This document shows positions 539-61,509 of a stretch of DNA of 64,000 bases, piece by piece. Each line of letters starts with the position of its first letter. Position 1 is the stretch's first letter. Made by a program: the position numbers and the translations under genes. Under the pieces are notes generated by a model. That model worked only from the letters and a program-made list of their open reading frames with translations, ran no database searches and was not told where the DNA came from. This DNA comes from an uncultured Candidatus Cloacimonadota bacterium (GTDB lineage Bacteria > Cloacimonadota > Cloacimonadia > JGIOTU-2): positions 1,257 to 65,256 of the forward strand of contig CAYNOU010000004.1 of NCBI GenBank assembly GCA_964398885.1, written 5' to 3'.

Positions 539-1510
539 ATGTTGAAACGAAGTGTAAATCCTCCCGATGTATCGGGGGGAAAAAATATTAAATACACAAA
601 AATAATTATATCTTTTGCTGCTATTATGTTTGTATTTGTAGGCTCAATCTTTGCAGATAATGAAGCCTCGGGTGGCGAAAGTGGAGCTTTCTTGCGGATA
701 CCAATTGGAGCAAGGTCTGCTGGTATGGGTAATGCGTTTACTGGTGTTGCAGATGATGTAAATGGTCCGTATTTCAATCCTGCCGGATTAGCACAGATTA
801 CTAACTCCAGAATTGGTGGTATGTATAATATTATGACCCTGGATAGACAAAACTATCAAGCTACAATTGTTATGGGTAATGAAAGAGGTAGAGCAGTTGC
901 CCTGACATTTACCAGCTTTGGTGTAAGTGACATTATTGAATGTGTAGATGGTGTGCCAACTGGAGAAAAGTTTGATGATACGGAAATGGCATTTGGATTA
1001 TCTGCTGGTGCAAAGTTGTTACCAATATTAAGTCTTGGCGGAACTGCAAAATATATCAATCATACAATTTATGATAATAAGGGAGCTGGTTTTGCCTTTG
1101 ATTTAGGAACCATGTTGCTTTTAAATCCTATACGGATAGGTGCAAGCATAAGTAATCTTGGCGGAAAATTGACTTGGGATACTGACTCTAAAAATGAAGA
1201 TGAAATTCCAACAACTTTACGAGCAGGTGCATCAATCCTTTTACCTCTTGCTGCAATTGATTTATTAGCTGCTGCAGATATTTCTCAAACTTTTATTGAT
1301 GAAGAAGATGCAGAAGGTGACTTTAAACTACATTTTGGAGCAGAAGCCTGGATGGCTGATGTTTTAGGGGTCCGTGCTGGTTTAGATGGAGAAGACCTTA
1401 ATTTCGGTGCTTCTCTTAAATTAAAAAAGTTAAGATTTGACTATGCCTTTTGTCCTGATGCTCTTGATGAAGGACCAACTCATAAACTTGGTGTAGAGAT
1501 TCAATTTTAA
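539..1510 (+). CDS. Outer-membrane beta-barrel protein, PorV/PorQ-like (T9SS-associated) family
   Basis: Signal-like N-terminus. Motif GARSAGMGNAFTGVADDVNGPYFNPAGLA is typical of PorV/LptO-like OM proteins. Aromatic C-terminal end (EIQF). A GC palindrome lies in-frame at 563-577 (NPPDVSGG). Confidence 0.45.
   Translation: MLKRSVNPPDVSGGKNIKYTKIIISFAAIMFVFVGSIFADNEASGGESGAFLRIPIGARSAGMGNAFTGVADDVNGPYFNPAGLAQITNSRIGGMYNIMTLDRQNYQATIVMGNERGRAVALTFTSFGVSDIIECVDGVPTGEKFDDTEMAFGLSAGAKLLPILSLGGTAKYINHTIYDNKGAGFAFDLGTMLLLNPIRIGASISNLGGKLTWDTDSKNEDEIPTTLRAGASILLPLAAIDLLAAADISQTFIDEEDAEGDFKLHFGAEAWMADVLGVRAGLDGEDLNFGASLKLKKLRFDYAFCPDALDEGPTHKLGVEIQF
563..577. repeat. GC-rich palindrome TCCCGATGTATCGGG inside CDS (in-frame)
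   Basis: Member of the TCCCGA-N-TCGGGA hairpin family seen at 9 or more places in the window. Confidence 0.6.
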
Positions 1511-1523
1511 AATTGTAAGATAT

Positions 1524-1575
1524 ATTAAAAATACGGCTTTCTGTAATATAAATCACATTAAGCCGTTTTTTTCAA
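1524..1575 (+). terminator. Rho-independent terminator
   Basis: Stem ACGGCTT...AAGCCGT followed by a T7 run directly after the stop of CDS 539..1510. Confidence 0.5.
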
Positions 1576-1656
1576 AGCAATACAAAACTTGACAAAAAAG
1601 ATATTATTTTTAAATTTTAATAAGAAAATAAAACTTTGTTTTTTGACATATACATA

Positions 1657-2032
1657 GGGGGTGACAGGCTTCGACAGGGACTGTGGGTACAGGAATAGCA
1701 TATCAGGGAGATTACCTATCCTGTCTGCTGGAGGTAAATCCTTCGGATGAAAAAATGGTAATGCAAAATCTAATTGCAGATGAAAATCTCGCATTAGCTG
1801 CCTAAAAAGGTAGCTACATTTGACTTGATGTTGCCATTTGCATCTCTTCAAATGTCGTTCAAAATGGCTCTAATATTGTGATGTCTATAAGCAGTATTGA
1901 AATTTATAGACTGGTTCTGTAAGGATTTGTTTGTTGTTCTGAACAGAATAAGAAAATCACAACAGACTAAGTATGTAGAAGTTCTTGTATCCAAATCTCT
2001 GGACGCGGGTTCAACTCCCGCCACCTCCACCA
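1657..2032 (+). ncRNA. ssrA: tmRNA (SsrA)
   Basis: 5' end GGGGGUGACAGGCUUCGACAGGG. 3' end GGACGCGGGTTCAACTCCCGCCACCTCCACCA forms a tRNA-like T-arm plus CCA. The internal tag ORF ends ...ADENLALAA* (stop at 1803-1805). TTGACA promoter-like hexamers lie upstream. Confidence 0.85.
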
Positions 2033-2038
2033 GTCTTC

Positions 2039-2056
2039 GTTCCGATAAATCGGAAC
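2039..2056. repeat. Palindrome GTTCCGATAAATCGGAAC immediately 3' of tmRNA
   Basis: 8-bp perfect arms, a variant of the TCCCGAT..ATCGGGA family. May act as a terminator or recombination site. Confidence 0.45.
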
Positions 2057-58923: not shown

Positions 58924-59150
58924 TATATTAAATAACCACAATTTTTATTTCAAAAAATTTTCTAATATTAAAGCCTGTCAAGTAATTCTTAATATTTTTC
59001 AAAAGCTAAACTTCCATTTTCTTATTTGTAACTTCTTTATATTTATGAGCAGTAGGGTTATCTCACGAGATGACCGATTTCTGTTTGTACAGAAAACAAA
59101 TCCAATAGTTCGGACGGTTCGGGGAACAGTCCCTACATTACTTTTCTATA

Positions 59151-59900
59151 TTAAGGATAATGAAGCTCTTTTTGAAAAGGAAATTGAAATAAGAAACGAT
59201 TTATAGGAAAATAAAATATAAAATAATTTTCTTTTCTATATTTTGGGAAATATACTCTACCACTTATTATTTGATTCGGCCCTAAACTTGTCTTTCGTAG
59301 AGTTGTTGATTTCCATTTATCTCTTATATTATTAAATCTTTTTATTTTTGTCTTATGCCTTTCTTCCATTTCTTGTTTTCTTATTCTATCTTCCTCGCTT
59401 TGTCGTTGTTCTTCTTTCATTTCTTCGCGAGTTTTTTTCTTTCCAAAATTGGCAATAAAACCTAAAAAGTTTAAAAATCCTACCGCTACATCCATCCCTT
59501 TATCTCCCGCATAATGAGCATATTCCCGCGATATTTCTTTTTCAATTTCTAGTATTTTTTCTTCAGGATCAATAGCATATACTTCTTCTGCAGTCTTTCT
59601 AACGTAAGTTAAATCTTCTAGTTTAATATATGGAGTATAGTAAAATTGGCTTGGAACAATCATTATTGTATCGTTTTTTTGATTAGCAATTTCTATATAA
59701 AATATCAAATGTTTTCTATCAGCTTCTTCAAATGCAATAGCAACGGCAATTTCATTGTCATTATAACTAACTACTTCTTTTCCTAAGTGCCAATGTATTT
59801 CTTTTGATATTGGATGTAAACGAATAATTGGTCTTGGTCTTGGTGCACATGAAAGTAATATAATGCAAGTAAAAAGCACAATAAATAATAATTTCTTCAT
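59151..59900 (-). CDS. Hypothetical lipoprotein with charged C-terminal helix
   Basis: Lipobox LLSCA (start trimmed to MKKLLF). C-terminal KKTREEMKEEQRQSEEDRIRKQEMEERHK. Confidence 0.4.
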   Translation of the reverse strand: MKKLLFIVLFTCIILLSCAPRPRPIIRLHPISKEIHWHLGKEVVSYNDNEIAVAIAFEEADRKHLIFYIEIANQKNDTIMIVPSQFYYTPYIKLEDLTYVRKTAEEVYAIDPEEKILEIEKEISREYAHYAGDKGMDVAVGFLNFLGFIANFGKKKTREEMKEEQRQSEEDRIRKQEMEERHKTKIKRFNNIRDKWKSTTLRKTSLGPNQIISGRVYFPKYRKENYFIFYFPINRFLFQFPFQKELHYP

Positions 59901-59924
59901 CTTTTCATCAAATCCTTTTATTTT

Positions 59925-60060
59925 TCTCAAAGGTTAATTTTTCTTTTCCTTTATCATCATCCTCCTTATAAATAAAGAATTCTTCAACCTCTCTGTAAAA
60001 AAGTCCACTTAATGAAGTAATTTTATTCCCTTCTAATCCCTAATTATCTAATTCTTTATC
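59925..60060 (-). pseudogene. Remnant duplicate of the 3' end of gene 57760..58923
   Basis: About 80% identical DNA to 57775-57945 (..AAAGGTTAATTTT.CTTTTCCTTTATCATC..TAAAGAATTC.TCAAC..) with an internal deletion and a stop. Confidence 0.45.
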
Positions 60061-60207
60061 TTCTCCAGCGGTCATATGATACTATTTGAACAATAGACCA
60101 GTTCATTATATTATATTTTTAAAACATTCTATATTACAATTACTAAAAATTCAAAACATATCTTATACTATAGTATGCTCAGTCATCATTATACATATCC
60201 AATCGTG

Positions 60208-61509
60208 CTATGGCGCCCAGACAAGAACCCTACTTTCTTTTTGAACTGGCTCTAAACTAATAATATAAGAATTTCTAATCCTATCAGCAACCCTCTCCCC
60301 TTCTTCATTATTATAAAAAAGTTCTCCAAGAACTTCATTCTTTTGAACAAAATCACCAATTTTTTTGTATAATTTAAGCCCTGCGGTATAATCAATTTTA
60401 TCAGAAATTTTCCTTCTGCCTGCACCTACATCAATCAATGCCCAGCCTATTTCTCTGCTGTTAATATCTTTAACATACCCTTCTTTTTCTGCAATAATTG
60501 GAAGAACATATTTTGCTTTTCCTAAGATTGAATAGTCATTAACAATACCTGGATTACCACCTTGTAATTCTATGAATTTAGCAAATCTTTGTAATGCTTT
60601 CCCAGATTTTATTGTTTGCATTATCATTTCTTCAGCTTGATTCTTAGTCTTAACAATTTTACCTATAAGCAACATTTCAGTAAGTAAGGCAAATGTAACT
60701 TCTTTCAAATCCTCTTTATAATTTCCTTTTAGAAAATCAATACATTCAATTATCTCAACGCTATTTCCAACACAAGAGCCCAAAGGTGAATCCATATTAG
60801 TAAATAAAATTATTACCTTTTTACCAAATTTTGCACCTATCTTACTAAACGATTCAGCCAAATTTTTTGCAGTATCCAAATCTTTGGCAAATGCCCCTTC
60901 TCCAACTTTAAGGTCAATAACCAAACCATCAATTCCAGAAGCAATCTTTTTACTCATAATGCTCGCAGTCATAAGTGGAATGCTTTCAACTGTTCCAGTT
61001 ACATCACGCAGAGCATAGATTCTTCTATCTGCAGGAACAATCTCTTTGGATTGACTAATGATTGCAAAACGGTTTTGCAAAACCAATTCCTTGAATCTTT
61101 TCAAAGGTATTTGAGTTTGAAATCCGGGTATTGATTCAAGTTTATCAAGAGTTCCTCCTGTATGCCCTAAACCTTTTCCAGAAATCATTGGTACGAAAAG
61201 ACCACATTCTGCTGCAATGGGTGCCAAAACTATTGAAACTTTATCTCCAACCCCACCTGTGCTATGTTTATCAATAAATCTGCCATTTTTATTCGCAAAT
61301 TTTATTACTTCACCTGAAGAAATGTATTCTTGCGTTAACCAGTAAGTTTCATCAAAATCCATACCTTTAAGAAGAATTGCCATAAGCATTGCAGACATCT
61401 GATATTCAGAGATATTATCTCTTAGATATTCAGTTAAGAAAAAATGGATTTCTTCTTTACTTAACTTTTTACCATCTCTTTTTTTGATAATTAATTCAGT
61501 AGGATTCAT
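60208..61509 (-). CDS. Pyrimidine-nucleoside (thymidine) phosphorylase
   Basis: HSTGGVGDKVS and TGGTLDKLESIPG motifs. The C-terminal ...LVWAP* is encoded by the GC repeat CTTGTCTGGGCGCCA (60211-60225). Confidence 0.85.
   Translation of the reverse strand: MNPTELIIKKRDGKKLSKEEIHFFLTEYLRDNISEYQMSAMLMAILLKGMDFDETYWLTQEYISSGEVIKFANKNGRFIDKHSTGGVGDKVSIVLAPIAAECGLFVPMISGKGLGHTGGTLDKLESIPGFQTQIPLKRFKELVLQNRFAIISQSKEIVPADRRIYALRDVTGTVESIPLMTASIMSKKIASGIDGLVIDLKVGEGAFAKDLDTAKNLAESFSKIGAKFGKKVIILFTNMDSPLGSCVGNSVEIIECIDFLKGNYKEDLKEVTFALLTEMLLIGKIVKTKNQAEEMIMQTIKSGKALQRFAKFIELQGGNPGIVNDYSILGKAKYVLPIIAEKEGYVKDINSREIGWALIDVGAGRRKISDKIDYTAGLKLYKKIGDFVQKNEVLGELFYNNEEGERVADRIRNSYIISLEPVQKESRVLVWAP

Follow-up and report, generated by a model that had tools for sequence, protein, structure and literature searches.

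GC-rich palindromic repeat modules between and within the genes of an uncultured Cloacimonadota bacterium

A 64-kb stretch of DNA from an uncultured Candidatus Cloacimonadota bacterium (contig CAYNOU010000004.1, positions 1,257 to 65,256; the whole stretch is called the window here) carries several families of short GC-rich palindromic modules, mostly between genes and in some cases within them. [quoted passage not shown] The families, the insertions, their positions and their turnover are all shown. An earlier note on this DNA had listed four GC-rich repeats within genes (sites 1 to 4) as frame-preserving insertions that suggest selection. The four repeats do lie in real, conserved genes at the positions given, and their translations (NPPDVSGG, QPPIYSGV, TPPDISGL and an LVWAP tail) are as it described them. 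Judged from orthologue alignments, insertion is demonstrated at three of these sites (1, 3 and 4).

We compared the window with other contigs, here labelled L001, L002, L003, L006-L013, L017, L057, L067 and L130. The window is AT-rich (27-40% GC in 2-kb windows; genome about 32% GC), and its nearest protein matches are metagenome-assembled genomes (MAGs) labelled Candidatus Cloacimonadota or Cloacimonetes. The hairpin CCCGA-N(1-8)-TCGGG occurs in eight copies where 0.03 are expected, GTCTGGGCGCC with at most one mismatch in five where 0.11 are expected, and perfect GC-rich hairpins number nine as against about 0.7 in Markov shuffles. The commonest module is (T)CCCGA-loop-TCGGG(A), with a stem of 7-9 bp. 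Beside it stand the CGTCTGGGCGCC..AGCCTGA unit, the families GTCCGCCAG...CTGGCGGAC and CTGTCTCGGCTTGG...CCAAGACGGGCAG, and a MITE-like family of 100-150-nt palindromes built on GCCACAAAGRCAC. Fold energies at sites 1, 2 and 3 are -15.5, -15.3 and -8.5 kcal/mol (z about -5 relative to shuffles). Over 44 hairpin copies the loop is 2-8 nt long; the first flanking pair is complementary in 40/44 and the second in 25/44, with all four pair types found at the second. Thus, the stem is kept while its sequence varies.

Modules within protein-coding genes

The host gene of site 1 encodes a PorV/PorQ-like outer-membrane protein with 436 homologues. Directly after its ATG (539), 39 nt or 13 codons (542-580, + strand) carry the hairpin CCTCCCGAT-GT-ATCGGGGGG, which takes up only their 3' half. 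The N-terminus accordingly reads MLKRSVNPPDVSGG-KNIKYTK in the window, while the relatives in L001, L002 and L003 (91, 87 and 73% amino-acid identity) start with MKNIKYTK. Positions 542-580 are a clean 39-nt gap in the DNA of all three, and the upstream AAGGAG ribosome-binding site is conserved. Site 1 is therefore an in-frame insertion of 13 codons, and it makes the signal peptide's n-region longer. L007, another assembly from this organism, matches site 1 exactly.

Site 3 lies in a protein of 1089 aa that is conserved at 54-95% identity in three other genomes. Here the window has CTCC-TCCCGATATATCGGGA-C (35537-35557, + strand), read as TPPDISGL. Its orthologue in L006 (95% amino-acid identity) has CCGATATATCGGGAC (T-DISGL) without the six nucleotides CTCCTC of the window, whereas L008 (76%) has TPDSLKID and L010 (54%) has VPDNLIID, the window being 9 nt longer than both. 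The alignment indicates that the hairpin arrived before the window and L006 separated and that its length was altered afterwards.

At site 4, a 23-nt insertion, CTTGTCTGGGCGCCATAGCACGA (60203-60225, - strand), ends the gene of a pyrimidine-nucleoside phosphorylase with the residues V-W-A-P and a TAG stop. It is a clean DNA gap in L012 and L013 (85 and 90% amino-acid identity), and the tails of relatives read ...SRILGxY or ...SRVLDMYNDN. With the insert the reading frame is displaced; just downstream, the former tail LDMYNDD* can still be read, untranslated. Because homology to solved phosphorylase structures ends at residue 426 of 433, only a dispensable tail has been exchanged. The inserted unit belongs to the family GTCTGGGCGCC-[N]AGCCTGA, which is also represented at 31767, 32030-32040 (-), 61560 and 62275-62289 (-). 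An identical 22-mer of this GGCGCC unit forms the tail ...TPVWAPSLKGS* of an unrelated protein in the Cloacimonadota contig L057.

Site 2 belongs to a 1406-aa lamin-tail-domain protein that ends in a sorting domain of the type IX secretion system (T9SS). The hairpin ACCCCCGA-TTTAC-TCGGGGGT (6765-6785, + strand; QPPIYSG) lies in a variable loop of this C-terminal domain, which is the position given in the earlier note, but it does not add the loop. Every orthologue has one, about 4-24 residues long and variable in sequence, and the comparison with the closest relative, L006 (86% amino-acid identity), shows several small gaps, with the window one codon (3 nt) shorter. The sorting domain at 1-524, whose lack of the loop had suggested an addition, is a paralogue and the wrong comparison. 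The hairpin is specific to the lineage, but as a replacement within a hypervariable loop rather than an added loop.

These alignments also bear on the simplest alternative, namely that the motifs are ancestral protein sequence or chance resemblances and that nothing was inserted. We hold it to be very improbable. At sites 1 and 4 the gaps are clean and both flanks are conserved, the more distant orthologues lack the site 3 sequence, and the eight hairpin copies far exceed the number expected. Distant orthologues are without the same peptides at sites 1, 3 and 4, and for these three sites the alternative is refuted. What it retains is site 2, where nothing was gained on balance, the core at site 3 that is common to L006, and the single copies of the 16-mer TCCCGATATATCGGGA in many unrelated phyla, which come close to chance plus the general abundance of terminator-like hairpins.

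A further coding insertion, of about 90 nt (30 aa, SPLRHKDTKENHYNDKIQDEPSCPGAFVVN; 40104-40193, + strand), was not listed by the earlier note. It lies in frame in the RNB domain of RNase R and consists of the inverted pair GCCACTAAGACACAAAGACACAAA ... CCTTCGTGTCCTGGTGCCTTTGTGG, of the same family as an intergenic element at 13326-13477. The insert is missing from the RNase R structures of B. subtilis and E. coli and from the nearest cluster representatives at 56-39% identity; a metagenome search with the RNase R query returned only distant relatives (36-42% identity). RNase R of L006 also has an insert of about 30 residues, which has diverged from that of the window far more than the flanks have, as would be expected of unconstrained residues. 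Among the insertions found here, it is the one most like a Rickettsia palindromic element (RPE).

With regard to reading frame, the internal coding length differences that we checked (39, 9 or 6, about 90, 6 and 30 nt, and a net -3 nt at site 2) are all multiples of three. The sole coding insert of another length, the 23 nt of site 4, is terminal and brings its own stop. By alignment, the coding copies fall in a signal peptide, a sorting domain, linkers, variable loops and tails. Of the four listed copies, all of which had been said to keep the frame, site 4 does not keep it; site 2, where 3 nt are lost on balance, is a replacement. Nor do three copies share one frame, as had been stated: the left arm at site 2 is offset by one base, and other coding copies use the two other frames. 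The 16-mer is free of stops in all three, and coding hairpins are read, depending on the gene, as P-D-x-S-G, as S-R-x-I-G-T (at 19640 and in RNase R of L006) or as V-P-K/I-Y-R (its V-P-K form at L057), with no fixed frame.

The proposed selection for frame-preserving additions of loops and tails is not borne out. Only three of the eight core hairpins lie in intact coding sequence and five outside, although 88% of the window is coding, a depletion with P of about 0.001 by our binomial arithmetic (3/8 against 88% coding). Coding copies occur in all three frames, nothing is added at site 2, site 4 does not keep the frame, and maturation removes the parts that hold two of the four sites, a signal peptide and a T9SS C-terminal domain. 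The coding pattern is what purifying selection would leave and is no evidence of favoured insertions.

Intergenic copies, larger elements and turnover

Copies between genes include two small hairpins that invite a different explanation. Upstream of yicC, ATCCCGATATATCGGGAT (37548-37565) stands between TTGACA and TTAACT; the hairpin is missing in L006, which has 10 nt (GCAAATTCTA) where the window has 17. Upstream of a tRNA-Thr gene, the perfect palindrome GTCCCGATATATCGGGAC (32193-32210) corresponds to ATCCCGAT-ACC-ATCGGGAT in L006 (L006:5748), where a compensatory change from G-C to A-T at the stem base keeps the stem. Such hairpins might be cis elements selected in place, that is, RNA stabilisers, terminators or attenuators, or an operator for a dimeric regulator, with the coding copies acting on the downstream gene or on translation. 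The hairpin near yicC fills the 17-nt spacer between the two hexamers, about 127 nt separate the hairpin at 35541 from the start codon that follows it, outer stem pairs covary, and REPs are believed to function as RNA elements (PMC3733652). We nevertheless consider this account unlikely. The hairpins occupy places of many kinds (behind a start codon, in the middle of a gene, in linkers, within other repeats and in a disrupted gene), loops that vary from 2 to 8 nt are ill-suited to an operator of fixed spacing, no T-run follows the hairpins, and presence and absence flip between genomes that are 95% identical while the neighbouring genes stay unchanged. A function acquired after insertion would be compatible with the preferred explanation by repeat modules.

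Other intergenic copies are composite. The element at 27985-28166 has 30-nt inverted arms around two hairpins, one at 28016-28041 and TCCCGACTTGTCGGGA at 28065-28080. An outer hairpin TCCGCCAG...TCTGGCGGA at 31290-31365 encloses degenerate GATATATCGGG repeats in a degraded region beside a transposase remnant. The same outer arms recur at 55250-55293 in a 44-nt nested hairpin, TCCGCCAG[CTCCGAGACGGAG][TCCCGAAAATCGGG]TCTGGCGGA (-27.5 kcal/mol), a hairpin inside a hairpin that stands where the relative L013 has AATT. Between two genes, the GC-rich mosaic at 61519-61655 (58-61% GC) contains CCCGATGTATCG and two CCGTCTGGGCGCCGAG-type units; it amounts to 133 nt extra compared with L013, where the flanking genes are 11 nt apart, and 117 nt extra compared with L012. 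A further intergenic mosaic at 62270-62455 is made up of a GGCGCC unit, the module CTGTCTCGGCTTGG...CCAAGACGGGCAG, which recurs at 19750, and GATTCGCCAATTGGCGAATC, a palindrome, and includes pieces of 36 and 52 nt that are specific to the window relative to L013 (92-94% identity).

The perfect 36-nt palindrome GTATTTGGAATACCCAGATCTGGGTATTCCAAATAC was seen at 30503-30538 in an open reading frame (ORF, 30015-30650) without a family match, which adjoins an ORF for a partial DDE transposase (30700-31170).

The 152-nt element at 13326-13477 is palindromic over its full length, with 59-nt arms (-54.6 kcal/mol, z -8.2). As read from the alignment, it has terminal inverted repeats, TGTAATGG.../...CCATTACA, and direct repeats AAATGGATAATTG on both sides. 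The window and L007 are 99.9% identical over 13.7 kb, and between window 13380-13425 and L007:17260-17305 there are a 4-nt indel and two substitutions in or beside the central loop of this palindrome.

A 318-nt mosaic of GC-rich hairpin modules (19635-19952, + strand; -121.9 kcal/mol, z -8.5) splits a DUF498/Mth938-like gene into an N-half (19426-19634) and a C-half (19953-20148) in the same frame, its length being a multiple of three. It contains five in-frame stops, has the direct repeat ACATA at both junctions and lacks inverted termini. When joined, the two halves match PF04430 contiguously (E 7e-14, profile 1-107 of 109). An intergenic copy in another Cloacimonadota genome, L130, is 96% identical to the mosaic over 165 nt, and L017 is 85% identical over 191 nt. 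The internal modules differ from the L130 copy by further nested palindromes, and L130 has the 16-mer where the window has AAAATG. The interrupted gene may be a recent pseudogene or a split gene, or the insert may be removed or bypassed. Rfam gave no family for the mosaic at E up to 1, and for the window only the transfer-messenger RNA (tmRNA) and two tRNAs at gathering thresholds; given these results, a known RNA family or a group I or II intron is unlikely. The tmRNA gene itself has 26 extra nt at 1725-1750 (CTGCTGGAGGTAAATCCTTCGGATGA, with a TTCG-loop hairpin) relative to two relatives, upstream of the tag reading frame.

The modules dominate the length variation relative to syntenic relatives. 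Over 10 kb aligned with L006 at 95% identity, the core hairpin is behind most indels of at least 6 nt in the conserved part of the alignment. These include 35537, the intergenic 37553 (17 against 10 nt) and, in the linker between the CSD2 and RNB domains of RNase R, L006:13147-13161, where L006 has TCCCGATATATCGGGACG and the window CAAGATATTACT, a gain of 6 nt read as S-R-Y-I-G-T. Relative to L013 (92-94% identity), the window alone has GC-rich inserts of 133, 36 and 52 nt and the 44-nt hairpin in a hairpin, and L013 has a reciprocal gain, a 30-nt in-frame insert in the tail of PlsX.

Many of these events look like local edits, and the palindromes might have arisen where they stand through a mutational process (template switching, snap-back synthesis or, at microhomology, short-patch conversion) rather than from a mobile element. 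Few-base replacements at places with prior partial similarity (CCGGAT to CCCGAT at site 3, CAAGATATTAC to TCCCGATATATCGGGAC in RNase R of L006, AACCGTGTTAAT against CCCCCGATTTAC at site 2), the absence of target-site duplications and the perfect complementarity of the stems would all fit such an origin. Palindromes formed de novo should, however, differ from one another, whereas the same 14-16-mer recurs at many loci in several genomes, as do the non-palindromic unit of site 4 and the 318-nt mosaic; the microhomologies may come from the aligner. Local mutation therefore seems to us quite unlikely as the source of the modules.

We scanned one genome per species, 185,579 genomes in all, for the 16-mer and found at least 117 loci. 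Cloacimonadota, which by our estimate make up a very small share of species, contribute 14 of 117 loci among the matches listed, seven of them (eight copies) from one MAG; given the estimated share, this also speaks against chance resemblance. The 14 loci (107 kb) contain 34 hairpins of the family, mostly outside long ORFs. Probably coding copies lie in a T9SS sorting domain, a C-terminal tail and a small ORF (one each). The other matches listed are single and scattered over many phyla, as expected from chance and terminator-like hairpins, and in 14 of the 102 non-Cloacimonadota matches listed the 16-mer forms the tip of a longer hairpin. We rejected the 16-mer as a pan-bacterial signal; by a rough estimate, a six-pair stem with a four-base loop will match hairpin tips often by chance across so many genomes.

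That the modules are errors of sequencing or of metagenome assembly is highly improbable. Palindromes can cause assembly errors, and the window and L007, which reproduces site 1 exactly, may share a sample. However, three contigs from NCBI and JGI encode the phosphorylase with the VWAP tail, an independent MAG shares site 3 and the RNase R insert in diverged form, and other studies have yielded MAGs and a single-cell genome that contain the same modules. An adapter artefact was likewise rejected: the 16-mer matches no library adapter known to us.

In viral contigs, scans with the 16-mer and the GGCGCC unit gave scattered matches, taken as chance, and no sign of a link to phages. One of these contigs (L148, IMGVR_UViG_3300028161_000090) has two copies of the 16-mer 244 nt apart at 52-311, just upstream of an ORF whose N-terminus we take to resemble a reverse transcriptase. 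In the bacteroidotan Reichenbachiella sp. (L067, JAOPTS010000209.1, 5300-6400), an ORF for a tyrosine transposase like those associated with REPs (RAYTs) has a REP-like repeat of about 110 nt on both sides; one copy of the repeat has a 21-nt insert with TCCCGATATATCGGGA in the loop of a GTGTC/GACAC hairpin, and the other copy is without it.

Several larger differences from relatives were also noticed. About 25.3 kb (6919-32232) separate the lamin-tail-domain gene and the gene of the 1089-aa protein, which are 163-470 nt apart in three genomes (L006, L008/L009 and L010/L011). The block holds a second tRNA-Thr gene (18263, 97% identical), an extracytoplasmic-function (ECF) sigma factor, TonB/ExbBD, a MacAB-type efflux set, phosphate and Tct transporters, two lamin-tail paralogues and the remnant of a DDE transposase; an island, or a rearrangement at tRNA-Thr, is a possible explanation. 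About 2.3 kb at 57776-60094 are missing from L013, where the phosphorylase gene precedes rpmF-plsX-fabH. They contain two paralogous ORFs without assigned function (393 and 259 aa) and 98-nt repeats at 57779 and 59924 that are 86% identical. The segment 3' of fabH (55210-55334 against L013:4750-4840) matches in reverse orientation relative to fabH, which suggests a small inversion between close genomes. A 1090-aa ORF (42749-46021, - strand) combines an N6 DNA methylase domain with a Type ISP C-terminal specificity domain and resembles a restriction-modification enzyme.

Survival and movement of the modules

The explanation we favour is as follows. Within the time that separates genomes of 92-95% identity, new copies turn up in new places and old ones change. 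Most lie between genes, often nested in the loops of existing hairpins, and build the mosaics. A copy in a coding sequence would survive only in one of two cases. In the first, its length is a multiple of three, it brings no stop and the site tolerates extra residues, as the n-region of a signal peptide, a cleaved T9SS sorting domain, an inter-domain linker or a variable loop may do. In the second, it lies at the extreme 3' end of a gene and can provide a new stop there. All four sites in the earlier note would be such survivors. All other coding insertions would be removed by purifying selection, since only three of eight copies lie in intact genes while 88% of the window is coding. The added residues are probably neutral, given that signal peptides and T9SS C-terminal domains are cleaved off during maturation, and nothing in our findings shows a benefit to the cell.

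How the modules move can be proposed by analogy. A trans-acting enzyme that handles single-stranded hairpins would suit them, and a RAYT or IS200-like tyrosine transposase is the obvious candidate.

A number of results weigh against this picture of repeat modules on the move. Searches by tblastn with IS200, IS608 and RAYT queries, a weak test, found no match in the window or about 170 kb of related contigs (about 0.25 Mb), and the only transposase in Pfam scans of the window's ORFs was the partial DDE remnant at 30700-31170 (PF13751). Apart from the palindrome itself, the small hairpins lack terminal inverted repeats, and they show no target-site duplication. A GTAG/CGTC tag is inconsistent, with CGTC or GACG beside 8 of the 44 copies and GTAG beside 4 (12/44 together); the GGCGCC unit alone regularly begins with CGTC. 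Several events are replacements of 4-12 nt rather than pure insertions. The site 4 insert does not fold by itself (-2.2 kcal/mol), and the part of the 39-nt insert outside the hairpin (17-18 nt, its 5' half) has no second copy in the window or the collected loci; for the non-hairpin parts of both the 39-nt and the 23-nt inserts, no donor was found in the window or in all the collected loci. The sample of coding copies, finally, is small.

We also put forward, tentatively and with more doubt than belief, that the 16-21-nt palindrome (T)CCCGA-loop-TCGGG(A) is an independent mobile module, the smallest of its kind, which inserts without target duplication by replacing a few bases. Its preferred targets would be the single-stranded loops of other hairpins, although it would enter genes as well, and it would rely on a single-strand mechanism that targets hairpins or loops and needs no element-specific ends. 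If this were true, the small module would act in Cloacimonadota and possibly in other bacteria of the Fibrobacteres-Chlorobi-Bacteroidetes (FCB) group (compare the Reichenbachiella repeat with the same 16-mer), and it would correspond in bacteria to the GC clusters of mitochondria and be the chief origin of the indels that separate close genomes.

For the repeat modules as a whole, the events verified with orthologues document that they are the chief cause of length differences among close Cloacimonadota genomes. They can enter essential genes, namely those for RNase R, PlsX, a nucleoside phosphorylase and proteins of the secretion system, and the genes survive it. In Cloacimonadota, odd N-termini, tails and 'split' alignments are to be expected from gene callers and homology tools, and the presence or absence of a module can serve as a fine-scale strain marker. 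Short hairpins without a tag and with fast turnover are also a tractable case for how REP-like elements move without an evident RAYT.

Comparison with known repeat systems

RPEs (Ogata et al. 2000; reviewed in PMC10969869 and PMC3733652) measure about 150 bp, and in R. conorii many of them are inserted in frame (PMC10969869). The earlier note likened the repeats of the window to them, and the likeness holds in so far as palindromic repeats lie between genes and, in frame, in unrelated housekeeping genes at tolerated positions. In-frame copies are found here in the PorV-like protein, the 1089-aa protein, RNase R and PlsX (L013), and intergenic copies belong to the same families. The RNase R insert (about 90 nt, 30 aa, from a family of 150-nt palindromes) is of RPE size and behaviour. 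Its family, including the element at 13326-13477, spans about 90-152 nt, whereas the four noted sites measure 6-39 nt against the 100-150 nt or so of an RPE. The likeness does not extend to a conserved peptide in a fixed frame: no peptide is conserved here, and all three frames are used. The modules are, moreover, GC-rich sequences in an AT-rich, free-living anaerobe of another phylum, and not in an obligate intracellular parasite; a relation in sequence is not to be expected, and the two are likened by behaviour.

Di Nocera et al. 2013 (PMC3733652) describe REPs within the genes of several species, located at termini, in linkers and in loops. The ends of REPs are also documented as a source of TAG stops for the ORFs beside them (PMC3733652). 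The modules resemble REPs and BIMEs as many-copy palindromes of about 16-40 nt that are mostly extragenic, form clustered and nested mosaics, show compensatory variation in their stems and occasionally lie within genes at termini, linkers and loops, with a stop supplied to the upstream ORF at site 4. They differ in having no consistent unpaired GTAG/CGTC tag, in stems and loops at the short end of the range and in the coexistence of several families, and no RAYT was found by tblastn in the window or about 170 kb of related contigs.

Bacterial MITEs such as ERIC, Correia, Nezha and Chunjie (PMC10969869) have partial parallels in the element at 13326-13477, with its terminal inverted repeats and flanking direct repeats, and in the 318-nt mosaic, a gene-disrupting element with ACATA on either side and nearly identical copies elsewhere. 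In contrast, the small hairpins have no inverted termini beyond the palindrome and no target duplications, and the 318-nt element is modular and without inverted termini.

Three further systems share single traits with the modules. The GC clusters of yeast mitochondria are short GC-rich palindromic modules in an AT-rich genome, mostly intergenic with some in coding sequence, and their mobilisation is not understood; being organellar and unrelated in sequence, they are an analogy of behaviour only. DNA uptake sequences (DUS) and uptake signal sequences (USS) of Neisseriaceae and Pasteurellaceae are over-represented short motifs that lie between genes and, where tolerated, in coding sequence, often as inverted pairs. 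Unlike the modules, they are not palindromes themselves, arise mainly by substitution or conversion and need a competence system, and nothing here bears on uptake. Intrinsic terminators differ by their T-run, which is absent after the four sites and after the hairpins at 32193 and 37548.

In conclusion, the modules are of the general REP/RPE-like kind. We keep them outside the named families because their tag is inconsistent, no RAYT was found in the DNA searched and they encode no fixed peptide. They provide a new example, from a little-studied phylum, of a behaviour known from Rickettsia and from REP elements, rather than a new principle.

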